Shown piece by piece: positions 16,801 to 41,744 of a DNA stretch of 43,673 bases. Under the pieces are notes generated by a model. That model had not been told where the DNA came from. It made no database searches and worked only from the letters and a program-made list of their open reading frames with translations. The stretch lies in the IMG/VR virus record IMGVR_UViG_3300020042_005083, positions 1 through 43,673 of that record. One strand, 5' to 3'. The DNA is from a virus (taxonomy: Duplodnaviria > Caudoviricetes). The translations under genes were made by a program, and so were the position numbers. The stretch's first letter is position 1. Every line of letters begins with the position of its first letter.

Positions 16801-19800
16801 CTAAAGAAGCCGAACAACCCGAAGAACCGGAAGAACCTAAAGCAAGTCTGCGCCGTGCAGCCGTTCCAGACGAAACTGAGATTTCCACTCAGAACCCACA
16901 GGGCGTTAACCGCCGATACGACCCTATTGAGCAGATGCTGTCTATCGACCAGAAAGCGGTCGAAGAGGCAATGGAACTCAATCCCAAACTGTACGATTCA
17001 ATCACAGATGCCATCTTGCGTTATGGCTTTATCCCGCCAGACACCAAGCGCGAAGATGCCATTTCGGTGTTTAAGAAGAACATCGTAAACAATCTGCTCT
17101 TCTTGCATGATGCCATCCCCAAAGACATCGCTAATCGCAGCAAACTTTGGTACGACGGGGCGCACGTCATTGCCAAAGAAATGGGCAAGCAGTACGGCAT
17201 GAAGATGGAGCAGGTGGCTGGCATCTTTGCTGCCATGTCTCCACAGAAGGATTGGTTCCAGAACGTATCAATGGGTGAACGCGCCATTGACATCCTGATT
17301 AACCAAGGAGATGCCACTTGGGACGACAACATGTTGAAGTATGCGGAGAGTTACATCCGCGAACCCAAGGATCGCAAAGAGCGGGAAAAGCGTCAAATCT
17401 TCTTTGACAAAAACATTCGCCAAACCAGCGAAAATCAAACGGCTCTCAAAGACATGGACATCGAAAACGCTGCTGCGTTTATCCGTGCCTTTGACGAAGC
17501 CTACAACTCGCGTCAATATCGCATCGTTACGCCTGAAGGTGGGTTTGCTGGGCTGGTCAACAAGAAAGATGGCGACCCTGCCATCATGACATGGTCAACG
17601 TATGGCCCTATCGAAAAAGCCGTCAGCATTTTCAGAGACCCTAGTCGCAAAAATATCAGCGAACAGTTGGGTGAAGAGCACAAGATTCGCTCCTTCTACA
17701 ACAACATCGCCGCCCCCAACGCCGACATTGACCATGTGACGATTGACACCCATGCGGTAGCCGCTGGTCTGTTTGAGGCTTTGGCTGGTAGCGACACGCC
17801 TGTAGCCGAAAACTTTGGCACAACGGGCGGGACAAATTTGCTGGGGGTTGGCGGCACTTACGGCATCATTGCAGATGCATATCGTGAGGCAGCCAAGGCG
17901 CGAGGTGTTCAAGCCCGTGAGATGCAGTCCATTACTTGGGAGGCCATTCGCGGCTTGTTTACGGAAGAACTCAAGAGCGGCATCAAGCCCAAGGTTCGTG
18001 CCGAGTGGGAAAAGTACAAGGCTGGTGAACAATCGTTTAACGAAGCGCGGGATGCTATTGTTGAGATTGCCAGCAAGAATCGAGATGAAGACTGGCGAGA
18101 CCCAGACTGGATTGACTCAGGCCCCGGCCAGACTGTGGCCGATGGTGGGGCAAGTTACGACAAGGACTTTGTCCCAGAGGGTGGCGTTCGATTGCGTGAA
18201 GAAAGTGTGCTGCGCGAGAAGTTAACGTTTAACTTGTCTTCCGTCACCAACTCAATCCCCGGCCTTAAAGATTTGTACCAAAAGGCCATGTCTGGAGATC
18301 AGGCGGCGTATAGTACCTTGCAAAAGGCAGCAGAAAGTTCACTTAGATATCTGCTTAGTGGAACGTCGGCACGAATCACTGTTGACTACGCCAAAGGCGT
18401 ATATCTGTCTGACCGTGAGCCTTCTATTGCAGCAAAAGTTGCCTTTAGTGAAGAGGATCGCCCAGCAGTTCTGGCGGCTCTTGAACGCTTTGCCAGCAAC
18501 TATAACCAGTATGCCGTTCACGTTAGACAGGGCACAGCGTACCCATTGGGTACTGAGTTTGACGACGGTTCGTATGCAACTGCCGTGTTTACCATTGACC
18601 TTCAAAAGAACTTAACCAATGAGGAAATTGGTCAGGTTTTGACTGAGACCAATCTAGAAGCGTTTACTGTTGTTCCAACCAAAACGCCAAAAGGCATCGT
18701 TAATCAATTGGTTGCCTATTGGTGCAAACTTAATAGCAAACCCCAAGAGGAGCAGGAAGATGATTTCAAACAGTTCAAAGCCAACCTCACGAAAGCCGCC
18801 AAGTTGGTTGGAGTCGCAGGTAAGAAGCCTAGAAAAACAATTGAACGCCTCTTCGTCTACGCAGACGATGACGAACGATCAACCCACACCTACGGGCGAA
18901 TTCGTGGCGACGTTTCACCCAAGCAAGGCGCGGATACAGAAACCCCAAGAATAATTGCTGATTACATTCGGGGTGGCGCGGGCACGGTTGTACCGCCCAA
19001 GAAGTTAAACAAGTTCCAAGTTCTGAGTCAAAAACTGCTTGCTTCTGTGCAAGAGGCCTTGCCTGTCAATGACTTGAAAAAGCCACTTGTCCGAAAGGCT
19101 TACAACGCTGCCAATGTTGAACTAGCAAAACAATTTGCTGCCCTGCCTGTCAAGGTTGAGGTTGTTGACCTTACTGACAAGCCCGGAACCTTTTACTACG
19201 ATGGCACCTACAAATCTGGTACGGCAGCCAAGGGAGAGATTGTTGCCAAGGATGAAGCAGAAGCCCGCGAGCAACTTAAACAGCAAGCCATTGATGTAGA
19301 TAAGATCAGGCAGCGCCCAGAACCTTATGCCAATAGCGCAGAGATGCGTAAGGATGTCAGCAACAACAATGTGCTGAAAATCCTCAAGACCCAAGCAGGT
19401 TCATTTGGCCCTGAAGGTGTTCCGATGTCGGATCATCCTTTGCTGGAGATGTCGGAGTTCAAAGACATCAACAAAGTACCGTTGCTGTACAACGATATGC
19501 TGCGGGCTGTGCATGACTACTACGCACATGGAGTGACCCCAGCAGAGTTTGGCCCTGTCGGTGAAGCCACAGCATGGTTAAACCATATGGCAACCACCAT
19601 GAGTCCTCTGGCCCGATGGGTCATCACGGCAGAGACTCGTTTGCAAAATGCTTGGCAAAACTTCCGTCCGGGCGCGGAAAACATTCCGTTGGCTGACCGT
19701 CCGTATGCCCTGCAAAAGGCGGCATTGCCCCCAGTGCAATTTGCCCTAACGGGCAAGGCAGACATTGATGCTCCTATGCTGGAGTTCATCAACACCCTGA

Positions 19801-22800
19801 CACCTAAACAGCAACTGGGCAGCCTTTCAGAGAAAAGCCCGCTGGTCAAGAAGATTGGCCCTGCTACCACGGCAAAGTTTAGTATCCGTGCTCCAAACAC
19901 CAAAGAGTTTAAACAGTGGTTTGAGGACAGCAAGGTTGTTGATGAAAACGGTGATCCGCTTGTTGTGTATCACGGAACAATGGCGGACATTACGTCCTTT
20001 AAACCTTCTAAAGAAGGTGTTCTTGGGGCTGGCGTTTATTTAACTCCTGATCCAAAGTTTGCAGAAAACTATTCAACAGAGAATGGAAACATTCTTCCTG
20101 TCTTTGCTTCCCTTAAAAACCCTCTGATCATTCGTTTGGAAGGAAGGCACCAGCCAGCATTTGTTGGGTTGATGCAGTTGGGGATGAGTGAGGCGGCAGC
20201 AGAAAAAGCAGTTGATCATGGCTTTGAAGAGTACGGCAATATGCGACAAGAGTTGCGTAGCCGTGCGCTCAAGCAAGGCTATGACGGCATCATGCTGTAT
20301 CAAGAAGGTTCTTTGCGGGAGTTGGTTGTCTTTGATCCGACGGACATCAAGTCCGCTATTGGTAATCAAGGCACATACAATCGATTTAGCCCTGACATCC
20401 GCAAGAGCATCCGCGCTCCGCAGACAGAAGAATTTAAACAGTGGTTTGGTAATAGCAAGATCGTTGGCAAAGATGGTCAGCCTCTGGTTATGTACCACGG
20501 CACAGCCAGAGACATCAATGTCTTCACGCCTAAACAAGCAAACGCAATCTTCCTGACGGGAGATCGGGAGTTTGCTGAAGGCTTTGCTAGCATGAGCCTT
20601 GACTGGGTTGCCACACACTATAAGGAAATGCTGACACCAAACCAACTGGTAGAGGCTCGCGCTTTTGCTGAACGTCTTGGGCGTCAGACATACAGCCGCA
20701 ATCCAAAGTTGGTTGAGCAGATCACAAAAGACTTGCGACAAGGTAAAGATACCGAAGATGCCACTGATTTAATTGCTACGGCAGTTAAACAGATGTTGGA
20801 CAAGACTAAACGAGTGATGGAGGTCTATGTCCGCGCCGAGAAGCCGTTTGATTATGAAAACGCAGATCACATCAAACAAGTAGCAAACTTGTTACCTGCC
20901 ACGATCAGAGCAGAGGTTGCTTTCTCAGATCAACCCGGCATCACTTACACAAAACTAGATGCCATTGAGAAATTAAAGACTGGTGAGTGGGACATTGTCG
21001 AAAGCAAATCTGTCCAAAAGGCTATTCGCGAACTGGGCTTTGATGCGTTCTACACCCAAGAAGGTGGCGAAAAGAACATTGCTGTTTACAACAGCAATCA
21101 AATCAAGTCCGCCACCAACAACGAAGGCACCTATGACATCAACAATCCTGACATCAGGAAGAGTCTTCGTTCGGGCGCATCAAAGTTTAAACAATCTGAA
21201 ATGAACCAATTTAAGGAGCCGGGGTTTAAGTCCAAAACTAAACTTATTGAACTACCAATCAATGAGTTTTTGAACCTTGCAGACAATGAGTTTGATCAAG
21301 CGAAATTGGACAATGCCAGACGTGTGCTTCAAGAGGGTGGGCAATTCAACAACCTGCCTATGCTAGGATTTGAAACAAGGTCTGGGGCGATTGCTCCTAG
21401 AGTTATAGAGCACGAAGGTCGTCACCGTGCTCGGGCTTTGCTGGAACTTGGGTACACAAGTATGCCCGTTATATTTAAGGGCGACATCCGGTGGAGTGAA
21501 CAAGAGACTCGGGGGCGATTTGATTACCGAGAAGAATGGCCGACCAAGTTGCAAGCGCAATCGGAAGCCATTGATCCCAACTACTTGGCCCCCTTCCCTG
21601 TTTCTAGGGGGGAGTCCAATCAACCATACACGGGAGATGTGCCCCCGGCAAAAGCCAGCCTCCGATCCTCGCTCCCCGCTGCCCTTGTTCAGCGTGTTGA
21701 GCAGACCACGGTTGCCCGTGAAGACAAAGGCTTCATCAGCCGAATCCTAAAAGCCATCAGCCCCGGAGATCACACATCCATAAGGGCAGAACTGCTAAAC
21801 AGGTACAACCAACTTAGCGTCATCGACAAGATGCGTATCAAGAAGATGGGTGGTGCTGCGGCTATGGCAGATATCTCTGCTGAGTCGGCTGCCTTGTTAT
21901 CTGACCTTCGTGCAGGTATTGTTGCCTCTGCCCTTGGTGTCCATGACAAGGTGGGCGGCGCTCCTGTTTACGTCCAGAGTTTTTACGTAGTGCGTAACGG
22001 GCAAATCCTCCCGCGCCGATACAAAACTAAGGCGCTGGCACAGGCTGCGGCTGGAACTACTGGTGAGGTACGTTCTGGTGGACACACAGCCGTTGGTAAC
22101 TTCAATGGTTCTGTGAAGGGGCCACTGGCAATCTTTGCTCCATTGGCTGCTGTAAACGATCCGATGATCTATCAACTTTACCAATTCTGGGCGGCAGCCA
22201 AGCGCGGTAAACGGTTGACCAAGGAAGGCAGAGAAGAACTGCTGACCCCAGCAGATCAGGCTCACGCCCAGTTCTTGGAGAAGAAGTACCCCATGTTTGT
22301 ACAAGTCCAAAAGGACTTCATCAAGTACAACAACAAACTCGTTGACTACATGGTGGACACAGGGGTGCTGTCTCCAGAGCGCGGCAAGATTTACACGGAA
22401 CACGCCGACTACCTGCCGTTCTATCGTCAGATCGAAGGCTTGCCCACTGCTGGGCCAAAAATCTTTGCATCTATCTCTGGAGTTAAACCTCCCAAGGCAT
22501 TGAAGGGCAGCGATGCCCGTCTGGATGACTTCCTTGAAACGATAGTGCGTAACACTCAAGCCGCAGTAGAGGCGGGGGTCAAGAACGTGGCAGCCCAACG
22601 ATCAGTAGAGGCTGCTAAAGACGTTGGTCTTGCCGTGAAGATACCGCAAGGCGATGGGATGCCAACGACCGTTGTTGTGCATGAGAACGGCGTACCAACG
22701 TACTACGCCTGTGGCGATGTTCTATTCGTAAACGCCATGAAGAGTCTGGGAATGTCAGACATTCCGTTCCTGAGCCTCTTGTCCATGCCAGCCAATCTGC

Positions 22801-24320
22801 TCCGTGCAGCGGTGACCAAAGAACCAACCTTCATGCTGGCAAATATGCTGCGTGACTCGTTGTCTTCCTACGTTACCTCTGGCGTAAGCATGACCCCGGT
22901 AATCGACACCGCCAAGAACTTTGCCATGTCAATGGCAGGTAAGTCTCCTGAGTATGACGCTCTGCGTAAGGCGGGCATCATAGGTGGCTATGAGTTTGCA
23001 CAAGGCGTTGAAACCAGCGGTCGTAAGTTGGGAGAAAAACTCAAGGCGGCTAACGTCAAGTCCACTGGTCTTAAACGGGTGGGTGAGATTGCTGCCTCCC
23101 CAGTCACCGGGATTTGGCAATTCCTTGAAAAGGGCAGTGAAGCCTCAGATGCGGCCACCCGTATCGAGATTTACAAGCGCACTCTGGCTGAAACCGGAAA
23201 TGAGACCGAAGCACTGTTTAAGTCTCTTGAGGTAATGAACTTCAACCGTAAGGGACGTGCTGCTTCCGTAAGAGTTCTTACGGCGGTCGTACCGTTCTTA
23301 AACGCACGGATGCAGGGTCTGGACATCTTGTATCGTGCAGCGATACAGCCAAGTATGCCGGGGCAGTCACCCACCGATAGGCAGAAGGAACTTCAGCACA
23401 AGTTCCTTGTGCGCGGAGCCACGATGGCTGCCTTGTCTTGTTTGTACTGGGCGCTAACCAGCGATGATGATGAGTACAAGAAGCAGGAGCAGGATACCAA
23501 AGACAACTATTGGTTGTTCCCTTCTATGGGGATCAAGATTCCAATCCCATTTGAAATTGGTGTGCTGTTTAAGGTGATCCCAGAACGCATCATGGCTTTG
23601 TCCTTTGGCGATGATTCGTTTAAGGACTTCCGTCAATCAATGACGAATCAAGTGATCTCCACCCTGCACTTCAACCCGATCCCACAAGCGGTCATTCCTA
23701 TTGTGGAGAACATCACCAATCACTCGTTCTTCACGGGTCGAGACATTGTGAGTGAGGGCGTGGCAGACTTGGAGGCTGGATATCAAACCTCCGCTTCCAC
23801 ATCCAGCCTGATGGCAGACTTCGGCAGGGCTACTGGTCTCTCTCCAATCAAACTGGAGGCCGCGATCCAAGGCTACACGGGTCAGATGGGTATGTACTTG
23901 GTGTCTGCCTTGGATGCCATATATGAAGCCAACAGCACCATCGAGCGCCCAGCCAAACGCTTCGAGCAACTGCCGCTGATTAAACGGTTTGCTATCGATC
24001 CAGAAGCGCGGGGTTCGGTGACTGCCTTCTTTGAACTGAAGGACAAGGTAGATGCAGCGGTCAAGACAATCAATGTGCTGGAGCGTGGTGATCCAGAGAT
24101 TTACGACAAGTACATTGAGACCAATGAAAACCTGCTGGCGTCCAAAGAGTACATCAATGTGCTGGCGTCTGACCTAAAGGACTTGGCAAAGATGAAGGTG
24201 ATGATCCGCGCATCAGATGATTCTGCGGAGGTCAAAAAGGATGCGTTGCTGGAGATTCAGCAACTAGAGAACGAACTGACCGCCAACATCAAAGACCTTC
24301 GGAAAGAGTTCAACCCCTAG
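13848..24320 (+). CDS. Giant polyvalent virion protein (zincin metallopeptidase, uncharacterised enzyme-like domains, 2x ART-PolyVal-like ADP-ribosyltransferase, ParB-like domain, LPD38-like C-terminus)
   Basis: 3490-aa ORF; HESIH at aa 857-861 plus EEAIADAF; FKQWF..SK.V...G.PLV.YHGT twice; EGRHRARA; KDNYWLF...IPIPFEIGVLFKVIPER. Confidence 0.85.
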   Translation: MYNVELPDGTLVQVPDNVPEDEARRRIRKQFPQFAEPADKQSILRQVADVPLGIARGATQGARMISDIFGAGSKTSQNIAGVENYIADLMSAQSKKDQQEIARIQKEAEDKGIWDQVKAGARAFAIAPIDTLSSAAGTALPVIAAGLGAATLGAPAAVGTGIAALMGAGMGAGTIKGSIYEATKQALIEEGATPQVAEQKALQAQEYGGKNLDQILLGTVIGGVAGAGPLERGAARILSGRILNKAAKESGEAATKSTLRNRVESGLLEAAPEALQAGQEQVAQNIALQREGMNVPTFRGAVGAATLEGLAGAGLGAAVGRRATPPELMEGQMAGETARQSAERLQQEINDLQGLKAIQAQQDAEALQTGIGIATTAKMPQQGETPLRPPPRPSAMQSDDYSSLLAPNLPPAPEVVGPTGIASAVSTPERGVAAPSSISGRAAVDSMMVPTDRALPAPVPTGYAPAMGGIQSVLPQRADRPAADRLPDFNQVMAQEADPFVATVGIGGALGGIEPSLPSRPTVDGTPTFNQLMAQDKAIDRGIASAVQTAIRKNTASEAQGPATPILKQPEPTFVSGLDTIVKGGKGSPSQETAQGPATPIIPVVPPAAPEAGVQGIIKGGKGQAAGQQNTAPATPVMPQKPPESGVSGVIKAAAGQPSTVQGPLGQPLLPQIQEAGLASATKGGRGTPTKTTSPSNVNNLNVPEATDEAIQQEQAPEGTATDIGTAGGTSVPVVGGQGVESAPAGTRRPKRGAVGSDQPDAGGTAGGKAKQSPALKKSLAATETEPEPEIEDEAVDKQIALKTKQLQAIMLRIMSGMGLRDVGLKLVANMDAEGEYANQLITLALNVDSPVRVLRHESIHAMKAMGLFSPQQWETLRKEASTKWIKQFLGEGEGSRFEQYQKLFKDQGLSDADANEAMIEEAIADAFGEFDLRGAPSGLMSAILKRMQNMFAAIKSAFGGTETAEQILQRAEKGKLQGKQPSAPKEAEQPEEPEEPKASLRRAAVPDETEISTQNPQGVNRRYDPIEQMLSIDQKAVEEAMELNPKLYDSITDAILRYGFIPPDTKREDAISVFKKNIVNNLLFLHDAIPKDIANRSKLWYDGAHVIAKEMGKQYGMKMEQVAGIFAAMSPQKDWFQNVSMGERAIDILINQGDATWDDNMLKYAESYIREPKDRKEREKRQIFFDKNIRQTSENQTALKDMDIENAAAFIRAFDEAYNSRQYRIVTPEGGFAGLVNKKDGDPAIMTWSTYGPIEKAVSIFRDPSRKNISEQLGEEHKIRSFYNNIAAPNADIDHVTIDTHAVAAGLFEALAGSDTPVAENFGTTGGTNLLGVGGTYGIIADAYREAAKARGVQAREMQSITWEAIRGLFTEELKSGIKPKVRAEWEKYKAGEQSFNEARDAIVEIASKNRDEDWRDPDWIDSGPGQTVADGGASYDKDFVPEGGVRLREESVLREKLTFNLSSVTNSIPGLKDLYQKAMSGDQAAYSTLQKAAESSLRYLLSGTSARITVDYAKGVYLSDREPSIAAKVAFSEEDRPAVLAALERFASNYNQYAVHVRQGTAYPLGTEFDDGSYATAVFTIDLQKNLTNEEIGQVLTETNLEAFTVVPTKTPKGIVNQLVAYWCKLNSKPQEEQEDDFKQFKANLTKAAKLVGVAGKKPRKTIERLFVYADDDERSTHTYGRIRGDVSPKQGADTETPRIIADYIRGGAGTVVPPKKLNKFQVLSQKLLASVQEALPVNDLKKPLVRKAYNAANVELAKQFAALPVKVEVVDLTDKPGTFYYDGTYKSGTAAKGEIVAKDEAEAREQLKQQAIDVDKIRQRPEPYANSAEMRKDVSNNNVLKILKTQAGSFGPEGVPMSDHPLLEMSEFKDINKVPLLYNDMLRAVHDYYAHGVTPAEFGPVGEATAWLNHMATTMSPLARWVITAETRLQNAWQNFRPGAENIPLADRPYALQKAALPPVQFALTGKADIDAPMLEFINTLTPKQQLGSLSEKSPLVKKIGPATTAKFSIRAPNTKEFKQWFEDSKVVDENGDPLVVYHGTMADITSFKPSKEGVLGAGVYLTPDPKFAENYSTENGNILPVFASLKNPLIIRLEGRHQPAFVGLMQLGMSEAAAEKAVDHGFEEYGNMRQELRSRALKQGYDGIMLYQEGSLRELVVFDPTDIKSAIGNQGTYNRFSPDIRKSIRAPQTEEFKQWFGNSKIVGKDGQPLVMYHGTARDINVFTPKQANAIFLTGDREFAEGFASMSLDWVATHYKEMLTPNQLVEARAFAERLGRQTYSRNPKLVEQITKDLRQGKDTEDATDLIATAVKQMLDKTKRVMEVYVRAEKPFDYENADHIKQVANLLPATIRAEVAFSDQPGITYTKLDAIEKLKTGEWDIVESKSVQKAIRELGFDAFYTQEGGEKNIAVYNSNQIKSATNNEGTYDINNPDIRKSLRSGASKFKQSEMNQFKEPGFKSKTKLIELPINEFLNLADNEFDQAKLDNARRVLQEGGQFNNLPMLGFETRSGAIAPRVIEHEGRHRARALLELGYTSMPVIFKGDIRWSEQETRGRFDYREEWPTKLQAQSEAIDPNYLAPFPVSRGESNQPYTGDVPPAKASLRSSLPAALVQRVEQTTVAREDKGFISRILKAISPGDHTSIRAELLNRYNQLSVIDKMRIKKMGGAAAMADISAESAALLSDLRAGIVASALGVHDKVGGAPVYVQSFYVVRNGQILPRRYKTKALAQAAAGTTGEVRSGGHTAVGNFNGSVKGPLAIFAPLAAVNDPMIYQLYQFWAAAKRGKRLTKEGREELLTPADQAHAQFLEKKYPMFVQVQKDFIKYNNKLVDYMVDTGVLSPERGKIYTEHADYLPFYRQIEGLPTAGPKIFASISGVKPPKALKGSDARLDDFLETIVRNTQAAVEAGVKNVAAQRSVEAAKDVGLAVKIPQGDGMPTTVVVHENGVPTYYACGDVLFVNAMKSLGMSDIPFLSLLSMPANLLRAAVTKEPTFMLANMLRDSLSSYVTSGVSMTPVIDTAKNFAMSMAGKSPEYDALRKAGIIGGYEFAQGVETSGRKLGEKLKAANVKSTGLKRVGEIAASPVTGIWQFLEKGSEASDAATRIEIYKRTLAETGNETEALFKSLEVMNFNRKGRAASVRVLTAVVPFLNARMQGLDILYRAAIQPSMPGQSPTDRQKELQHKFLVRGATMAALSCLYWALTSDDDEYKKQEQDTKDNYWLFPSMGIKIPIPFEIGVLFKVIPERIMALSFGDDSFKDFRQSMTNQVISTLHFNPIPQAVIPIVENITNHSFFTGRDIVSEGVADLEAGYQTSASTSSLMADFGRATGLSPIKLEAAIQGYTGQMGMYLVSALDAIYEANSTIERPAKRFEQLPLIKRFAIDPEARGSVTAFFELKDKVDAAVKTINVLERGDPEIYDKYIETNENLLASKEYINVLASDLKDLAKMKVMIRASDDSAEVKKDALLEIQQLENELTANIKDLRKEFNP
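15970..16176 (+). CDS. Candidate nested gene (68 aa) in the +1 frame of the giant gene
   Basis: GGAGG at 15959-15963, 6 nt before the ATG; protein looks ordered and amphipathic (PPPGLEDLNGEQWEVISQMLAVLLAER) while the host frame is a low-complexity linker. Confidence 0.55.
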   Translation: MRQFSRNKRPKELRRISVQQVEQAFLWLVDKELNLPPPGLEDLNGEQWEVISQMLAVLLAERQSNPLH

Positions 24321-30235: not shown

Positions 30236-31088
30236 TCTTCTCTCCTTGGAATTGTTGGCACCAATCGGCAACTGAACAATAGTTGCCCGTGCATCGCTTG
30301 GGTTCACCGGGACGTGTTTCGACGTATCCTTTCTCCTTTTCAGCCAACTCATTGGCTTCCTCTATGGTTTTGAACAACTTAATAGCAGTCTTCCTGCCTT
30401 CTCTCTTGACTGCGTAAACGGTCTCTGAAGTCCATCGCTCTTCAGCGGTACATGGTTGGAGTTCATCGCCCAGATCAGCCGCCACCTTGGCATTTCTGTG
30501 CATTTCAAGGCGCTGCTTGATGTACGCCTCCGTTTCCTCGTTTGACCAGACCGGAAGGTCAACCATGTGAATCGGGGCCTTGGGGTACTCGTCACGCGCG
30601 TCATGGCGGGAGAAGTCGCGGATGAAGGCACAGACCTTCAGCGAGACAACGCGCTCTCCCTTGACCTTCTCCACAAGGTACTTGTAGATGTTTAACTGCT
30701 GAACCCATTCAGCCTTTTCGCGCATCACCGACCACGCGCTGGTCATCTTGTAGTCGATGATCTCGGTGCCGAATGCGGTGTTGTGTTGCAGGTCAATCGC
30801 GCCGCTGATGGTCACGCCATCAATCTCAAGGAAGAGCCGCTCTTCGCTGACCCAGCCCTCAGTCACGCCGCGCTCCATCACAACGTGCAAGGCGCTGCCA
30901 AGCATAGACCAAAGCATATCTGAGACATCGGTCTCGATATTGTGGTCGTACTGTTCGCGCAGCCGCCTAATCTTAGGGGGCGACATCAGTTCGGTGACGC
31001 TGTATTGGCTGTGCCCCTTGCTGTAGTATTCGGCATTCGCCAGAGTGAGCAGCGGGGCTGGCACTCCGTGCTTGTTGGTGACCTTCAA
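30219..31088 (-). CDS. PD-(D/E)XK exonuclease (Cas4/RecB-like recombination nuclease)
   Basis: LGSALH...E.RL...ISGAIDL...IIDYKMT...QLNIY; C-terminal cysteines; TTG start with AGGAG RBS. Confidence 0.85.
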   Translation of the reverse strand: MKVTNKHGVPAPLLTLANAEYYSKGHSQYSVTELMSPPKIRRLREQYDHNIETDVSDMLWSMLGSALHVVMERGVTEGWVSEERLFLEIDGVTISGAIDLQHNTAFGTEIIDYKMTSAWSVMREKAEWVQQLNIYKYLVEKVKGERVVSLKVCAFIRDFSRHDARDEYPKAPIHMVDLPVWSNEETEAYIKQRLEMHRNAKVAADLGDELQPCTAEERWTSETVYAVKREGRKTAIKLFKTIEEANELAEKEKGYVETRPGEPKRCTGNYCSVADWCQQFQGEKNDHFD

Positions 31089-31100
31089 TCGGTGCTCCTA

Positions 31101-31529
31101 ATGACTCAGAGCCTAGATCATAGTGCTATTGCGAACAGAGCGCAAGCGGTATCGATGATTTTTTTTGGGGAGCCCGCATCAAAGGCCAACTCACGGCGGG
31201 TTGTGCGCTTCGGAGGAATGTCCCGTTTAATCAAAAGCGCCAAGGCTTTGACCTACTCAGAGTTGTTTAAACAACAGGCTGTGCCCATCAGCCCCCTGCT
31301 GGATGGCGATCTATGCGTCACCATGCATATCTACTACGCCTCACGGCGTCCCGACCTTGATGAGTCCTTAATCCTTGACTTGCTTCAGGATGTTGTTTAC
31401 GTCAATGACCGGCAGGTCAAGGAGAAGCACATCTATTGGCACTTGGACAAAGAGTCCCCTCGGACGGTGATCACGGTGACAAAAAAAGACCCTGCACTCG
31501 GCAGGGTCAAGAAGGAGAGAGAGAAATGA
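31101..31529 (+). CDS. rusA: RusA-family Holliday junction resolvase (start may be 31155)
   Basis: GEPASKANSRR...RRPDLD...ILDLLQ..VYVNDRQV...PRTVITV. Confidence 0.8.
   Translation: MTQSLDHSAIANRAQAVSMIFFGEPASKANSRRVVRFGGMSRLIKSAKALTYSELFKQQAVPISPLLDGDLCVTMHIYYASRRPDLDESLILDLLQDVVYVNDRQVKEKHIYWHLDKESPRTVITVTKKDPALGRVKKEREK
31117..31145 (-). promoter_or_regulatory. Sigma70-type promoter of the recombination operon
   Basis: Minus strand TTGCGC-17 nt-TATGAT; spacer contains TGTTCGCA. Confidence 0.65.
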
Positions 31530-31565
31530 CACCTTGCGGTGCCCCTCAAGTGTACAACAAAGTGC

Positions 31566-31594
31566 TTGACAGGGCCGTGGCATCGGCCCAGAAT
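31566..31594 (+). promoter_or_regulatory. Sigma70-type promoter with a palindrome in its spacer
   Basis: TTGACA-17 nt-CAGAAT; GGGCCG-N6-CGGCCC inverted repeat at 31572-31589. Confidence 0.7.
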
Positions 31595-31600
31595 GCAACC

Positions 31601-31975
31601 ATGTCGCCGTGGAAAGCGCCTAGTTGACCGTTGACTCATGCCCCTGCCCTCAAGCGACGTATGTGCGTAAAGGGTTTCCACCGGGGGCAGCAGTCAACGG
31701 TCACTAGTAACCTCCACGGTGCATCGGACTCCATCCGATAGCAAGAGCGTACCCCCGCTGCGTGGAAGAAAAGGGTTACACGGTACGTCTTAGTACTAGG
31801 GGGCAGTTCCCGAATAATCCGTGCGGCTGGTCGAATCTTGAAGCCGAGGGGTCAAGTCAACGCTTGACATCAAGATACCCTTACGGGTGATGGCATACCC
31901 TCCTATACCCTAATATCATGGGGTAGGGGGGTCTTTGGATGGCGGATAATGAATGGCCCCCCAAGGGGCCTATAA
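31601..31975 (+). ncRNA. Highly structured leader / candidate ncRNA (CI/c4-like antisense element in its 5' half)
   Basis: No convincing ORF; 12-bp perfect stem 31625-31636 / 31692-31703 and at least six further hairpins. Confidence 0.6.
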
Positions 31976-31988
31976 ATAGGAGAGAGAG

Positions 31989-32477
31989 ATGGATATAGGC
32001 TTAGAGGTGGGTGTCCTGCGGGATGAATGGCATGGGCATATCAAGACTACCGGGGCTCATTGCCCCGTCTGTGATCGGTGGGGCAAGATATATGGCATCA
32101 GCCTAAACCGGACAATGGCGAAATCCTTGATCTGGTTGTTGGGTGCCAAGAAGGATGAAGATGGGTGGGCGGATGTTCCCCAGAATGCCCCGCGCTGGAT
32201 TGTTCGCAGCAATCAGTTGACCACCCTCAAACGGTGGAACTTGGTCGAACGCAGACCCAATGACCCTGAGTCCAAAACAAAATTCTCTGGTATGTGGCGA
32301 CCGACGGAGTTAGGATGCTCCTTCGCCAACCGCCAGACTTCCGTCCCCAAGAAGGTGTTTACATACCACGACGTTGTGCAGGGGTTCAGCGATGATCTGG
32401 TCACCATTGACCAATGTTTCGATGAGGTCTTCGACTACGAAGCCATGATGTCGGAATCCTTCACGGGGGAGCCATGA
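31989..32477 (+). CDS. Hypothetical protein (CxxC plus winged-helix-like region)
   Basis: AGGAG RBS; HCPVCDR...LKRWNLVE...GMWRPTELG. Confidence 0.7.
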   Translation: MDIGLEVGVLRDEWHGHIKTTGAHCPVCDRWGKIYGISLNRTMAKSLIWLLGAKKDEDGWADVPQNAPRWIVRSNQLTTLKRWNLVERRPNDPESKTKFSGMWRPTELGCSFANRQTSVPKKVFTYHDVVQGFSDDLVTIDQCFDEVFDYEAMMSESFTGEP

Positions 32478-32710
32478 GAGATTACAAGCAGGAATACGCC
32501 ACACAGAAAGCCAGAGCAGAACACCCAGACCGAATGGAAAGGCAGCGAGCCAGAAGGAAACTGGACGCTAAGGGTGTGAACAGGGCAGGTAAAGACGTTG
32601 CTCATGTGAAGGCCCTGTCCAAAGGCGGTTTAAACAAAGACGGGGTGAAGTTGGAGGCCCCGTCCAAGAACCGCAGTTTCCCGCGCAAGTCGGATGGCTC
32701 GATGAAATGA
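32474..32710 (+). CDS. Small HNH-like endonuclease
   Basis: RDYKQEY...GKDVAHVKALSKGG...SKNRS; ATGA-coupled on both sides. Confidence 0.7.
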   Translation: MRDYKQEYATQKARAEHPDRMERQRARRKLDAKGVNRAGKDVAHVKALSKGGLNKDGVKLEAPSKNRSFPRKSDGSMK

Positions 32711-34389
32711 ACGCAGAGTTTGTCGAGCAGTTTCATTTCGGGGACAGCACCAGAGTTGCCTGTCCCGAATGTTCATTCGATAGGAAGAAACCCAACGCCA
32801 AGGACATGACCCTGACCCGCAAATCAGATGGGGCAGTTGTTTATTGCTGCCATCATTGCGGGGCCACGGGTTCAGTTCAAGCCAAGAAAGCACATTACAA
32901 AGTGGCAGCACTCCCAAAGATGACACTTGTCAAAAGCAGTTTACAAATCCATCACTATCAATGGTTGAAAGCACGGGGGATATCAGCAGCCACAGCAGAT
33001 AAAGCAGGGTTATTCGCCGCAGAGAAGTTCTTTGGGCGGTTGGATAAGGTTCACGATTCCATTGGGTTCCCTTATTTCCGCGCCGGGGAGTTTGTCGGAG
33101 CCAAGTATCGCGCTATTCCAGAGAAAGATTTCACTCAAGATCAAGGTGGAGGGCAGGACTTCTTTGGCATCGACAATGTCATAGCGGGGCATCCCATCAT
33201 CATCGTTGAAGGTGAGGTGGACTGTTTAACTCTGATGGAGGCGGGGATCGTCAATGCGCTGTCAGTTCCCACCGGGGCGCCCCTCAAGGTGTCAGATGGA
33301 AAGATTGCCCCGTCAGAGGACAAGCGTTTTGGCTATGTATGGGCAGCGCGGGAAGCCCTTGAGGCTGCCCCTTACATTGTGTTGGCGACGGATCAGGATG
33401 TTCCCGGCCAAGCCTTGGCAGAGGAGTTGGCGCGGCGGATCGGCAAAGAGAAATGTCGGCTTGCCAAGTTCTCAGGCAAGGACTTAAACGATGTCTTCAA
33501 CGATCCCACCAACACCACCACGTTGCAGGAGATCATCGACTCAGCGCAACCTTACCCCATCTCAGGCTTATCTGATGCCGCCACCTACGCGGATCGTTTA
33601 AACGACCTGTATCAGAAGGGGACTGGGGCAGGGTTCTCGACGGGTTACCAATCCATCGACACCATTTACACAGTAGCCCCCGGCCAACTGACGGTGGTCA
33701 CCGGATACCCATCAAGCGGCAAGTCCAACTTTGTTGATCAGATCATGGTCAACTTGGCAAAGGGCAGCGATTGGAAATTCGGCGTTTGTTCCTTTGAGAA
33801 CCAACCCGAGATTCACATCACCCGCCTCATGGAGATTTACACAGGCAAACGGTTCTTCGACGGCAAGCAGAGAATGTCGAAGGAAGAGGCAGATGAAGCA
33901 TTGAAGTGGGTGAACGATCACTTCCTCTTCATTGACTCGCAGGGGGAAGAACCCAACACATTGGATTCAATCCTTGACCGTGCCCGTATAGCAGTTAAAC
34001 GCATGGGCATCAGAGGGTTGGTCATTGACCCATACAACTACATAGACCTGCCGAGGGAAAACTCCACCGAGACTGACGCCATCAGCCAGATGTTGACAAG
34101 GGTTCAGAAGTTCTGCAAGGCCCATGAAGTTCACACGTTCTTCGTGGCTCACCCTTCCAAAGTGCAGAGGGCAGGTGTTGAACAACCAAGGCCAGACGGA
34201 ATGTCCATCAGCGGGTCAATGGCATGGTGGGCTAAGACTGACTGCGGTATCACAGTCCATAGGCAGAAAGACCATGTGGAAATAGCAGTCTGGAAATGCA
34301 GGTACAGGTGGGTCGGCACCCAAGGCGAGACCACTTTGCTTTACAACAAGGTGGCAGGAACCTACGCAGAGAATCTTGACAAGTTCTGA
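32707..34389 (+). CDS. Primase-helicase, T7 gp4 / Twinkle type
   Basis: Zinc finger CPEC...CHHC; TOPRIM IVEGEVD and DQD; Walker A GYPSSGKS; VIDPYN; VAHP. Confidence 0.92.
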   Translation: MNAEFVEQFHFGDSTRVACPECSFDRKKPNAKDMTLTRKSDGAVVYCCHHCGATGSVQAKKAHYKVAALPKMTLVKSSLQIHHYQWLKARGISAATADKAGLFAAEKFFGRLDKVHDSIGFPYFRAGEFVGAKYRAIPEKDFTQDQGGGQDFFGIDNVIAGHPIIIVEGEVDCLTLMEAGIVNALSVPTGAPLKVSDGKIAPSEDKRFGYVWAAREALEAAPYIVLATDQDVPGQALAEELARRIGKEKCRLAKFSGKDLNDVFNDPTNTTTLQEIIDSAQPYPISGLSDAATYADRLNDLYQKGTGAGFSTGYQSIDTIYTVAPGQLTVVTGYPSSGKSNFVDQIMVNLAKGSDWKFGVCSFENQPEIHITRLMEIYTGKRFFDGKQRMSKEEADEALKWVNDHFLFIDSQGEEPNTLDSILDRARIAVKRMGIRGLVIDPYNYIDLPRENSTETDAISQMLTRVQKFCKAHEVHTFFVAHPSKVQRAGVEQPRPDGMSISGSMAWWAKTDCGITVHRQKDHVEIAVWKCRYRWVGTQGETTLLYNKVAGTYAENLDKF

Positions 34390-37838: not shown

Positions 37839-39611
37839 TTAAGCGGCTAATTTGATTTTGTTGAAGGCCACGGTGCCCAGCGATGCGATGCTGTTGACCG
37901 TCACGTTGTTGGGGTACACGCTGGACACGTCCATGTGAATGCCCAACCCAATGGTCGTCACCCCCATGCGCTCGCCCATATCGACCTGATGGCGAGTCGC
38001 TGGTGCGCCCATCCCGTCGGTGAGCATGAACAGCACCTTGCGCTCTGCCTTGTGGCGAATCAGCATCTCATGCGCGTAGCGCACGGCAAAGTAATCGTTG
38101 GTGCCGCCACCGTGAAGGACTCGGCGCAGGTCTGCTTCCTTGCGTTTAAACGGCTGGCCGAACGGCGACAAGACGCAGGTGCGATCCCCGAACAGCGCGA
38201 CACAGACATCGACCCCGGCAGCGGTCAGCGCCTCGGACAATGCGACGGTCGCGGCCACGGCAGTCGTGATCAGCCCGTCGCTGAACATCGACTCCGACAC
38301 GTCCAGCATCAGGACAACAGCGGAATCGATCCCGGCGGTCTCGACTCGGCGCTTGAAAACACGGGTGTTGCCCGTCGCCACAGAGTGCAAGGCAGCGACG
38401 TTGACCGAACCCGCACGGCGATGATGCTGGTGTTCCTCGAAGCCGGAATTTTCAAATAAACGGCGCACCTCGAAGCGCAACTTGCCCGACACGGCAGCGA
38501 CAGAGCGATGCTGCGCCGAGTTACGGAGGCGGGGGCGCAGGGCCACGCCAGACTCTTCGCTATACGTCCCGCCGAACATGCCCTCGGGAATGGTCGAGGT
38601 GCCCTGCATGGTCGGCTCGACCTCAAGGACGCGACCATTGAACCCTGCGGGACTCTTGCCGTTCTCTGGCAGGGCCTCAACAGCCTTGCCGGGAGCCTTG
38701 CCGGGAGCCTTGGCATCGCCCTGAGCATCGCCCTGAGCCTCGCCAACGCCCTTGCCAGTACCTTGCCCTTCACCCTCGCCTTGCGAGGCGTCCTGCGCCT
38801 CGCTAGACCCCTCTGCGGTGCCTTCGCCCTGACCTTCGCCCTGACCTTCGCCCTGACCTTCGCCTTCGCCCTGACCTTCGCCTTCTGATGGGCCTTCGCC
38901 GTCCGACTTGCCTTCAGCGTCAGGGTTGTCGCATGGGCGACCGTCTTCAGGCTGGTCAGGCTGGTCGCGCTGATCCTGCGGGATGCTGATCTGGTCGTAG
39001 ACCCAGCGGGCAATGACAATCGTGTCGGTTGTCGAGGTTGCCGTGTCAAGGCGGCGCTCGGCCTCCTCCCAGATGGACAAGAAATCGGCGGGGACGGGCA
39101 CCCGCTTGCAGAAACCGCGCGTGAAAACGGCGAGGCTGAACGGGTAAGCGCCGGGGGTGTTCCAGTTGGCGTGCGGGCTGGCAAGTGCCTCGGTGACCAT
39201 GCCGTCGAGCAGGGTGCCCAGCAGGTTGGTGACGTTGCCCAGCAGGTTGGTGGCAATTGCCTTGCGTTCGATGCGGGCGTCTTCCAGCGCATTCAGCAGG
39301 GTGCGAATGTAGGGGTTGTAGATCGAATAGATGGGCGTGAAGTCCGTCCATTTCCGGTGAAGCAGTTCATGGACAACGAACCCGACCCAACGTTGGAACA
39401 TCGCACGGGTTACGACAGAGTCGTCATCGATGTTGGCGAGGCACAGTTCGCCGCCGCCAGACATCGATGCGGTCTGGGTTTTGTCGCAGAAGCGCACGTT
39501 GATTGCGGGCAGTTCCAAGGCGGCGCAGATAGTGTGCGCGGCCAGCGTGAGGCCCCTGCGGGCCTCGAAGCCCTTCATTTTGGGCAGTCGCAGGGCGTGA
39601 TCAAGGTTCAT
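37839..39611 (-). CDS. CobT-like VWA protein (N-terminal HExxH domain, acidic linker, VWA domain)
   Basis: HELLH, NALEDARIE, (GEGQ)n linker, MIDAS-like DVSES...T...LTDG; GGAG RBS before MNLDHAL. Confidence 0.85.
   Translation of the reverse strand: MNLDHALRLPKMKGFEARRGLTLAAHTICAALELPAINVRFCDKTQTASMSGGGELCLANIDDDSVVTRAMFQRWVGFVVHELLHRKWTDFTPIYSIYNPYIRTLLNALEDARIERKAIATNLLGNVTNLLGTLLDGMVTEALASPHANWNTPGAYPFSLAVFTRGFCKRVPVPADFLSIWEEAERRLDTATSTTDTIVIARWVYDQISIPQDQRDQPDQPEDGRPCDNPDAEGKSDGEGPSEGEGQGEGEGQGEGQGEGQGEGTAEGSSEAQDASQGEGEGQGTGKGVGEAQGDAQGDAKAPGKAPGKAVEALPENGKSPAGFNGRVLEVEPTMQGTSTIPEGMFGGTYSEESGVALRPRLRNSAQHRSVAAVSGKLRFEVRRLFENSGFEEHQHHRRAGSVNVAALHSVATGNTRVFKRRVETAGIDSAVVLMLDVSESMFSDGLITTAVAATVALSEALTAAGVDVCVALFGDRTCVLSPFGQPFKRKEADLRRVLHGGGTNDYFAVRYAHEMLIRHKAERKVLFMLTDGMGAPATRHQVDMGERMGVTTIGLGIHMDVSSVYPNNVTVNSIASLGTVAFNKIKLAA
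38760..38885 (-). repeat. Low-complexity coding repeat (GEGQ)n
   Basis: CCTTCGCCCTGA tandem units on the + strand. Confidence 0.85.
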
Positions 39612-39651
39612 GATTTTCTCCGGTGATGTTGCGAACAAGGACTCGATGATA

Positions 39652-41163
39652 TCACAGATTGTCGAGCAGGTAGTCGGGATTGATGGTGGCAGCGTAAACG
39701 GCAGCCAGACCAGCAGCAGACTCGGACGGCTGGCGGGCAGCCACGGCGGCTTGCCAAGCCTCCGCTACTGGCATCCGGTCGAGAGCGCGGATGAAGGCGC
39801 AGACCGAACGGATGGACGGGGCATCGATAACGTCCCCGGTCTCGACCTTGCCTCGAGCCACGTTGATAGCCTCGACAACGTGCGTGGCGACCGCCAGCGT
39901 AGTGCCCGTGTGACGCATCACCGCAGCGATCTCTTGCGCGGGTTCCATGAACTTGAACGTGATCAGGCGGGCGAAGCGGTCGCAGAGCGCAGAGTTCATG
40001 GTGCGGGTGCCAGCGTACCTGCCGCTCTGGTCGCCGTTGCCCAACGTGTTATCGGCAGCGAACACCAACACGCCGGGAGCGCGGCGCCAGACTGACCCGC
40101 CAATGGTTACCGCCGCATTAGGCTCCAGCAGACCATTCAGCACGGCCAATTCCCCGCTATCGGTGTTACTGACCTCATCGAGCAGAATGACGCTCGAAGG
40201 GCAGGTGTATGCCATCAGGAAACCCTTAGGCTCGAAGACGGTCGCGCCGTTCACCAGACCCGTCGCGCCGATAAAGTCTTCCTGACCCGAGTGCTTTGTG
40301 AAGTTGATGCGTGTAAACGCACGACCCGTGCGGGCGGCGAACTGGCGGGCGGTCTCGGACTTCCCGGTGCCCTTCTCGCCACCGAACCAAGCATTCTCTC
40401 CGGTGTCCTGCGACAACAGCAGGTGCCTCAGGATGTCGGCGCTCCAGATGAAATTGTCGTCAACAGCAGGGGCGGCAGGGTGATCCCAGATATCGACCAT
40501 CACCTCGACACCCTTGCGGTCGGTCACCGAGATGTCGAAGACATCCACGCACGGCGCACGGCGCACCACAGTCGCGGCGACCATCGACCCGACAACGGCC
40601 TCGGCACCCGCATCAGCGACGGCAGCGGCAAATGGTTTAAACGCAGCGGCGACGGCCTCGGACACCTGCACCGCCACGGCGGCGTCATCGATGCGGATGT
40701 CGGCAACCTGAGCGCGAAGCGCAGCGGCTTGCGCGTCTGCCTTTTTGTCCAGCGCGGTCAGCGAGTCGCTCACCTTCAGGATGCCCTCGGCCAATGCGCC
40801 CCGGCTCTTGTCGAGTTCGATGGCGACTGCCTTCACCCCATCATCGAGACCCATCAGGCGGGACTGATGCGCCTGACCCAATGCCTTGACCTGATCCATC
40901 GCGCTCTTGAGCGCATCGACATCCTGCAACATCGCAGCACCGACAGAGGTAGCAGGGGCGGCAGGAACAGCCTTGCTGGCCCCGTAAACGTGGGCCTGAC
41001 CCGTCACCGACGCCAGCGTGATCGAGCAGTCTTCGATAGCGTCGGCCAATGCGTCACATGCGCTGCCCTTGTCCTTGAAGGGGATGCCGTGTTCGATGGC
41101 GGCAGCCTTGATGACATCAAGGCGCTGGCTCATCAGAATTTTGCGATTGTCTGCGCGGCTCAT
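39652..41163 (-). CDS. MoxR / CobS / CbbQ-type AAA+ ATPase with N-terminal coiled coil
   Basis: Walker A GEKGTGKS, Walker B ILLDE, sensor ADN, Arg finger LCDRF; start MSRADN is ATGA-coupled to the upstream gene. Confidence 0.88.
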   Translation of the reverse strand: MSRADNRKILMSQRLDVIKAAAIEHGIPFKDKGSACDALADAIEDCSITLASVTGQAHVYGASKAVPAAPATSVGAAMLQDVDALKSAMDQVKALGQAHQSRLMGLDDGVKAVAIELDKSRGALAEGILKVSDSLTALDKKADAQAAALRAQVADIRIDDAAVAVQVSEAVAAAFKPFAAAVADAGAEAVVGSMVAATVVRRAPCVDVFDISVTDRKGVEVMVDIWDHPAAPAVDDNFIWSADILRHLLLSQDTGENAWFGGEKGTGKSETARQFAARTGRAFTRINFTKHSGQEDFIGATGLVNGATVFEPKGFLMAYTCPSSVILLDEVSNTDSGELAVLNGLLEPNAAVTIGGSVWRRAPGVLVFAADNTLGNGDQSGRYAGTRTMNSALCDRFARLITFKFMEPAQEIAAVMRHTGTTLAVATHVVEAINVARGKVETGDVIDAPSIRSVCAFIRALDRMPVAEAWQAAVAARQPSESAAGLAAVYAATINPDYLLDNL

Positions 41164-41744
41164 TGTGCTGCCTCCTCTTCGATGTTGAACGTGTCGCCGT
41201 CGATGCCACAGACGGGCAGACCCTTGGCGGCCCACTTGTTGGACACCCGCACGATGTACCCGCAGGTCGGGCAGACTGCTTTGAGCATGCGGGTTGACTG
41301 CGTCTTAGGACGCTCTGCCGACAGAGCGGCGTGAGGGTAGTCACCCAGACCCGCGATGATGTTGCCGAAAGCCTCATCGAACAAGGCGGTCGGACGGGTC
41401 ACACGCCAGTTCACGCCCACAGGCTCGAGGCCCATTGCCTCGGCGGCCTTCTGGTAGGCGACCGTGGCGTGGCTAAGTGCGCCATTGGTTGCGTGGCACA
41501 ACTGGGCAACCAGCACGGCGACAACGTCACGGGGCTGATCCAGACTCGGGGCAACCATCACCTCGAGAGCGCGGTCGGCGCTGGCACCGTCAGGGAAAGC
41601 CTGACCCAACGCACCGGAGCGCGTAAACGTAGTTGGAAACGCGCAACTGACGCGAATCTTCGAGCAGAGCGGGAAACCCGCATCTGCGAACATGGGGCGG
41701 AACTCTTCCACCGCCGCGACAAGCCACTCTTCTCTGGTACTCAT
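41160..41744 (-). CDS. SprT-like protein with degenerate metal-binding motif and C-terminal zinc ribbon
   Basis: REEWL...IRVSCAFP...AQLCH (in place of HExxH)...STRMLKAVCPTCGYIVR...GLPVC; AGGAG RBS. Confidence 0.75.
   Translation of the reverse strand: MSTREEWLVAAVEEFRPMFADAGFPLCSKIRVSCAFPTTFTRSGALGQAFPDGASADRALEVMVAPSLDQPRDVVAVLVAQLCHATNGALSHATVAYQKAAEAMGLEPVGVNWRVTRPTALFDEAFGNIIAGLGDYPHAALSAERPKTQSTRMLKAVCPTCGYIVRVSNKWAAKGLPVCGIDGDTFNIEEEAAQ

Follow-up and report, generated by a model that had tools for sequence, protein, structure and literature searches.

The CI RNA of phage P4 is processed by RNase P and ends in a 3' CCA. It pairs with an upstream site, and has been tied to termination and to the control of replication (PMC4825925). 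In the C4 RNA of phages P1 and P7, specificity is set by a short exposed element that differs between phages (PMC5320573). Among plasmids, ColE1 RNA II is a long structured RNA, and incompatibility is determined by the binding of a small inhibitor, RNA I, to its 5' end (PMC5043065); the MRB plasmid RNAs (pB1067) are the other RNA replicon with which we compare our locus (PMC3035462). A role in plasmid replication has also been proposed for three motifs of 223 to 349 nt, ARRPOF, GEBRO and PAGEV, in a source that includes the c4-2 motif as well (PMC5737381), and a motif table is given in PMC2864571.

The window analyzed here is the whole of a 43.7-kb virus record (43,673 nucleotides). A 460-nt gap in it separates a RusA-like resolvase gene (31152-31529, + strand) from an operon closed by a T7-gp4/Twinkle-like primase-helicase gene (32707-34389, +); exonuclease and Sak genes are divergent. 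A preliminary description had seen in this gap an antisense RNA switch of the P4 CI or P1 C4 kind, controlling replication through the operon. Our main finding is that the gap holds two strongly supported candidate RNA families absent from Rfam 15: a hairpin, element A (31620-31707, +), and, directly downstream and missed in that description, a triple-pseudoknot RNA of about 220 nt, element B (31724-31945). Elsewhere in the window, an ORF of 3490 aa (13848-24320, +) closes the block of virion genes, and a CobS/CobT-like gene pair (AAA plus vWA-type; 37839-41235, - strand) is also found in one complete relative.

Two neighbouring proteins used as queries gave 160 viral loci. The gap sequence was matched in 52 of the 66 that bear rusA, and its best-conserved stretch, 31725-31990, lies downstream of the hairpin first flagged. 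Pattern scans added about 250 viral and 320 metagenome stretches. One cassette contig was found in a betaproteobacterial MAG, from which we infer that the phage host is a betaproteobacterium. The intergenic region had no blastn match among 50,697 phage records, and cassettes of relatives, including A plus B of one of them, gave chance matches only in PLSDB. Rfam 15 gave nothing in the window at gathering score, and only chance miRNA and RyhB matches in 31200-32200 at E up to 10. Literature searches did not find the cassette described. PMC10690425 lists 8495 anonymous IMG/VR motifs of 29 to 151 nt, and pieces of A or B may be among them, so that 'uncatalogued' means absent from Rfam 15 and from the literature covered.

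The leader hairpin and its co-varying contact

A sigma-70-type promoter, TTGACA-17-CAGAAT (31566-31594, +; TTGACA at 31566, CAGAAT at 31589), matches the consensus at 10 of 12 positions and would start transcription near 31600. A TTGnnn..YAnnnT pattern lies at most 60 nt 5' of the key (see below) in 82 of 90 homologues, and no minus-strand promoter-like site was found in 30900-32200. All the motifs originally named were recovered in place: the 12-bp arms at 31625 and 31692, TGCCCCT at 31639 with GGGGGCA at 31683, and GTCGC-C-GTGGAAA at 31603-31615; CGCTGCGTGGAA at 31756-31767, and CCGTGGA (31607) with TCCACGG (31713), are likewise present as letters. The long interrupted hairpin is borne out by folding (z -6.2 for 31618-31712 and -7.3 for 31600-31725, with none of 200 shuffles as good). 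From 142 profile matches, 90 distinct A sequences with enough flank were aligned. In 86 of these 90 the stem gives way to a terminator-like U-run, the window and a near-twin being among the exceptions; CCA occurs 16 to 45 nt past the bulge in only 32 of them.

In relatives, the 5' leader (31600-31619, +) folds into a hairpin of 5 bp, with 96.7% pairing over 36 sequences; this hairpin, weak in the window, presents in its loop a hypervariable 7-nt key (31609-31615, +). The key is complementary to the bulge TTTCCAC (31675-31681, +), which we call the anti-key. The contact between the bulge and an upstream sequence in the same leader, as first suggested, is supported by covariation: 88 of 90 homologues share a duplex of at least 6 nt, and the longest Watson-Crick duplexes total 662 against 394.6 for permuted pairs (maximum 450 in 10000; n = 90), a count that is not a probability since the A sequences are related. 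A further 58 A sequences gave 428 against 265 (maximum 297), with at least 7 nt in 51. Within a simple-subtype alignment of 36 sequences, the seven key pairs are 98% paired and six show compensatory changes, and the bulge is predicted to be unpaired in 70 of 77 sequences. Folding and covariation together mark hairpin A as a genuine RNA switch that evolution has conserved.

Keys are diverse (32 distinct ones among 59 loci), and differ in 14 of 15 pairs of loci whose B sequences are at least 95% identical. The stem arm beside the bulge also diverges fast between close relatives (0.23 per site), so that swapping of whole modules may account for part of the key variety. It is this diversity that suggests that A may act in trans and, with the U-tails in 86 of 90 homologues, that it may cause termination there. 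Near-identical copies in DNA-type runs have the key unchanged. Metatranscriptome contigs from two RNA runs cover only 32083-32289, in the first downstream ORF, and none lies over the element.

Other proposed contacts fared differently. The competing pairing of the leader is conserved: the second leader partner (31713-31724, +), directly 5' of B, pairs with 31601-31613, at -13.0 kcal/mol for cognate against -9.1 for non-cognate combinations (81 loci; best of 5000 permutations, -10.6). The downstream bulge target showed no covariation, with 359 against 357.8 permuted over the first 120 nt (n = 84, six off-register sequences dropped) and none out to 800 nt. Whatever the key, 68 of 76 loci have GCGYGGAA at this position, which pairs with 31730-31733 inside B; the complement is a coincidence between the window's key and an invariant part of B. 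The apical AGCGAC (31653-31658, +), once taken for a second element, can pair with 31603-31607 in the window's lineage only, and apical pairing is not above permutation. A far-upstream bulge target showed no covariation either (279 against 265 in the 5' flank, reached by 99 of 5000 permutations, and not upheld on energies).

The pseudoknotted RNA downstream of the switch

The fold of B, a set of connected helices that includes three pseudoknots, was derived from mutual information on 82 sequences. Domain I (31724-31776, +), which contains the supposed downstream target, consists of two small hairpins whose loops form pseudoknots (31730-31733 with 31763-31766, and 31753-31755 with 31773-31775), plus a lone pair, 31734:31741. 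Domain II (31779-31888, +) is built on a three-way junction (31779-31783 with 31819-31823) bearing a GNRA/UUCG hairpin and a T-loop-like hairpin, and continues with a helix (31824-31828 with 31842-31846), a 7-bp pseudoknot (31835-31841 with 31870-31876) and two variable hairpins. The 3' domain (31887-31945, +) comprises a pyrimidine strand, a G4-W-A-G6 tract and a co-varying same-sense repeat; a GC hairpin, the ribosome-binding site and the start of the first downstream ORF follow at 31955-31991 (+), as read from the sequence. When 63 sequences are scored, the 37 named pairs form in 99.1% of cases, against 30 to 42% for slid controls, and 27 show compensatory changes, the structure having been derived from largely the same sequences as were scored. 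Single-sequence folding is not significant (z -1.5), pseudoknots being outside the folding model. B had no match in Rfam.

Two other natures for B were considered and dropped: a minus-strand structure is ruled out by 173 G-U against 0 A-C combinations on the + strand, and a protein-coding one by spacing that falls in all three frames. The same ratio, with loops of the GNRA, UUCG and UNAC types, favours B acting as an RNA and not as a DNA structure. An insert of about 150 nt stands between the 5' double-pseudoknot domain and the remainder in four loci (L053, L121, L124, L132), and its being tolerated indicates that the domains are modular.

Two sets of B loci chosen without regard to the invariant G4-W-A-G6 tract (31920-31931) retain it in 65 of 67 and in 65 of 71 cases; none of the tract's eight predicted pairs is changed on both sides. 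The copies of the repeat that flanks the tract (31889-31894 and 31938-31943 in the window) covary, with at least seven variants (1306 against 1060.9 permuted, maximum 1108; 186 sequences). Part of the repeat word is left unexplained by a shared pairing partner and, we infer, would fit pairing of the RNA with template DNA. ColE1 is the precedent for a primer RNA that pairs with template DNA in this way: there the hybrid persists, RNase H cuts the RNA and Pol I extends it. In B, the G-tract and the repeat would be indirect signs of such a hybrid.

Genomic settings and the proposed role in replication

B resides beside replication genes of unrelated kinds. It is not tied to the T7-like primase, which is present in 9 of 50 B records and, among near-complete ones, in 2 of 12. 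Ten other records represent two more settings: a Toprim-type primase with an SF2 helicase upstream, or a small lambdoid genome in which an ORF of about 118 aa matches only the C-terminal part of replication initiators. In metagenomes, 28 of 30 loci with flanks of at least 1.5 kb on each side, some of them the same contigs as earlier loci, have a replication marker beside B (12 primase/SF2, 11 T7, 5 short initiator), the primase being upstream in 10. When loci were selected by primase, 57 bore rusA, and A or a cargo RNA was present in 54 of these. A tyrosine integrase, the only type looked for, was found neither in the window, as had been noted, nor in 16 near-complete genomes; PolA was absent from 5 complete relatives and DnaB from 5 small genomes.

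Each of the 16 near-complete B genomes has a single B and neither cargo C nor cargo D; conversely, B was absent from the near-complete genomes with those two cargos. B swaps with other cargo RNAs in the same slot, and the cargo families are mutually exclusive. Cargo C, about 250 nt after the terminator (L038, L084, L093, L149, L160, L309, L364), is conserved and apparently structured, occurs in 63-kb and small lambdoid phages, and had no Rfam match in the loci scanned. Cargo D (L321, L366:1215-1490, L374, L375, L378) had one match, to the uncultured GenBank phage MW202484.1; its supposed likeness to a plasmid region was not found in a PLSDB search. The Rfam Betaproteobacteria-1 RNA occupies the slot in two primase-helicase phages (L103:2629-2758, behind an A switch, and L134:3504-3625), the only matches of its model (RF02932), which had none on the window; this position hints at a replication role for the orphan motif. 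One-off cargos stand in L007, L108, L137 and L146. On inspection, cargos C, D and Betaproteobacteria-1 have no B-like G-tract.

The switch varies as well. Two other types, each with a promoter, a 5' hairpin, a long terminator and apparently two kissing contacts, one of them variable, precede cargos in L169, L174, L183, L184, L232 and L146 and in L189, L200, L201, L364 and L375, respectively; B is also combined with other switch types, seemingly with two kissing contacts as judged by eye. Between terminator and cargo, L043, L083, L038 and L007 carry an optional extra hairpin of about 100 nt, which has conserved motifs inside it and had no Rfam match. Two type II hammerhead ribozyme matches were seen in the related phage L134 (8676-8735 and 8982-9041, - strand).

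The form of the initiator goes with the presence of the cassette. The short protein of the lambdoid setting (L290:4346-4699 and relatives; about 118 aa, at least 453 protein clusters) corresponds only to the C-terminal domain of phage initiators, its longer relatives being DUF1376 or HTH initiators of 250 to 340 aa; a PDB fold search with it gave nothing clear (best Z 5.1). Among short-initiator loci with enough flank (62 of 80), a switch or cargo RNA was present in 62 of 62 (25 B, 20 D, 16 C and 1 switch only), a count in which two of the models, D and A3, had themselves been made from loci of this kind (56 of 62 score without them) and the A and B models also contained a few such contigs. 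Full-length-initiator loci with enough flank (65 of 78) had a cassette in 0 of 65; the two sets are separate clades, and the short query was taken from a B-bearing genome. Two partial matches left out of the counts are full-length types without cassette. A 9-mer repeated at least three times is present in 34 of 65 full-length genes against 0 of 62 short loci. In one complete genome, no initiator was found among the 56 of 62 ORFs scanned, within the sensitivity of the profiles.

From these patterns we lean, with moderate confidence, towards a two-part cassette in which switch A would control the amount or folding of B, and B would be a pre-primer that opens the origin as ColE1 RNA II does. B would then be likely to start phage DNA replication in place of an initiator protein. 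In a first step, the nascent key would pair with the bulge before the lower stem closes, which would favour read-through; the leader would then switch to the sequence immediately upstream of B as its partner, and B would fold. The pre-B strand lies 3' of the U-run, so this second pairing cannot itself be an antiterminator, and since the U-tail is missing in the window's lineage, control there would go through processing or through the leader/pre-B pairing and not through intrinsic termination. In a second step, the G-tract and the co-varying repeat would keep the RNA on the template DNA as a persistent hybrid, yielding a primer and displacing one strand, onto which the phage helicase-primase could load, or else a host helicase by way of the cut-down initiator. 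In a third step, terminated or processed A would accumulate, and its free bulge would bind new keys in trans and shut B off; this negative feedback would make of the variable key a determinant of incompatibility or superinfection groups. Two further arguments were set aside: T7-type primase motifs within B as an explanation, as B occurs with other primases too, and GC skew as origin evidence, which is confounded by gene direction.

The strongest competing reading, which we hold unlikely, extends the preliminary description by adding B to it: A would be an attenuator of the CI kind, and B would serve the downstream genes as a cis-acting leader or as a processive antiterminator. Promoter, kissing switch and U-tail stand directly upstream of an operon, the primase-helicase is downstream in the 63-kb type (11 of 30 loci), and downstream mRNA is present in two RNA runs; moreover, read-through of A must govern downstream genes too, so that this account may be partly true. 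It meets difficulties in the variety of downstream genes, in the primase or initiator lying upstream in other phages, in a downstream operon of less than 3 kb in the window, and in the split of 62 of 62 against 0 of 65 initiator loci, which gene control leaves unexplained. The first suggestion, a switch that controls replication, stands as regards the RNA switch and the link to replication, while expression of the primase operon as its output is doubtful, since other phages have the primase or initiator upstream of the same cassette.

A less probable possibility is that B marks the origin without being a primer, as a helicase-loading RNA scaffold or as a displaced + strand DNA structure bound by primase or short initiator. 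It draws on the same distribution evidence as the origin-opening pre-primer; the compactness of the pseudoknots and the invariance of their unpaired bases point to a binding surface, and such plasmid motifs are considered in Weinberg 2017 as possibly acting as ssDNA (PMC5737381). RNA-type tetraloops and three pseudoknots favour RNA, three unrelated protein sets beside B argue against one protein partner, and the repeat and the invariance of the G-tract are in keeping with a hybrid. Finally, a trans-acting RNA or ribozyme outside replication, in the early region and with A only limiting its dose, might be suggested by dense tertiary covariation, which ribozymes and large RNAs of phages typically show, and by the sRNA type given in Rfam to Betaproteobacteria-1 in the same slot, and is made very improbable by strict single copy, mutual exclusion of cargos and absence beside full-length initiators.

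Taken more broadly, and at slightly less than an even chance in our estimate, a widespread group of freshwater tailed phages would have replaced the origin-binding half of the initiator and its iterons by at least four unrelated and interchangeable families of origin-opening RNAs, one of them Betaproteobacteria-1; the terminated leader of the primer transcript would act in trans as the inhibitor of that transcript, and a 7-nt key would define dozens of incompatibility groups. If true, RNA-primed, antisense-controlled replication, known from small plasmids, would prove to be frequent among lake phages without a DNA polymerase, an integrase or a full initiator, as a replicon type of theirs. An orphan Rfam motif would gain a function, the 'headless' initiator family an explanation, and a fragment of about 450 bp would provide a compact origin whose specificity could be programmed through a code of 7 nt. 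Should B prove not to act at an origin, A and B would still be two strongly supported RNA families new to Rfam 15.

Comparison with known systems

Membership of A in the C4 or CI families, as initially proposed, is not upheld: there is no Rfam match, the C4 covariance model matched neither the window nor 14 relatives, and most homologues have a U-tail, with no conserved CCA end. P4 CI is nevertheless a reasonable analogue. P4 CI with seqA and seqC, and IsrK/STnc1160 of Gifsy-1, are also same-strand antisense modules within their own leader; the bulge of A pairs with an upstream leader site, as with seqA, and some relatives of A form a cloverleaf with minor hairpin, major hairpin and bulge. Unlike P4 CI, A has no downstream seqC-type target and, in the simple subtype, a single 7-nt contact; the hairpin itself ends in a U-tail in relatives, the third site is the second leader partner, the output of the cassette appears to be a structured RNA, and no integrase was found.

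As in C4 (RF01695), the exposed short element varies between phages. C4 RNAs have two elements, a' and b', with upstream and downstream targets, whereas A has one co-varying element, and lacks an Rfam match, an a2/b2 target, an occluded ribosome-binding site and a conserved CCA end. B, for its part, matches none of Betaproteobacteria-1 (RF02932), ARRPOF, GEBRO and PAGEV.

With ColE1 and MRB, the cassette would share a replicon region of about 400 to 500 nt that is initiator-free or initiator-reduced, and a long structured RNA with a small inhibitor that acts at the 5' end and determines incompatibility; as in those replicons, no origin-binding initiator protein was found, within the sensitivity of the profiles. 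It differs from them in having no Rfam or PLSDB sequence match, and in residing in tailed phages with their own primase-helicase or a cut-down initiator. Moreover, the putative inhibitor is on the same strand, being the terminated leader itself and not a counter-transcript, and a kissing leader in this self-inhibiting form would, if true, be a new kind of copy control.
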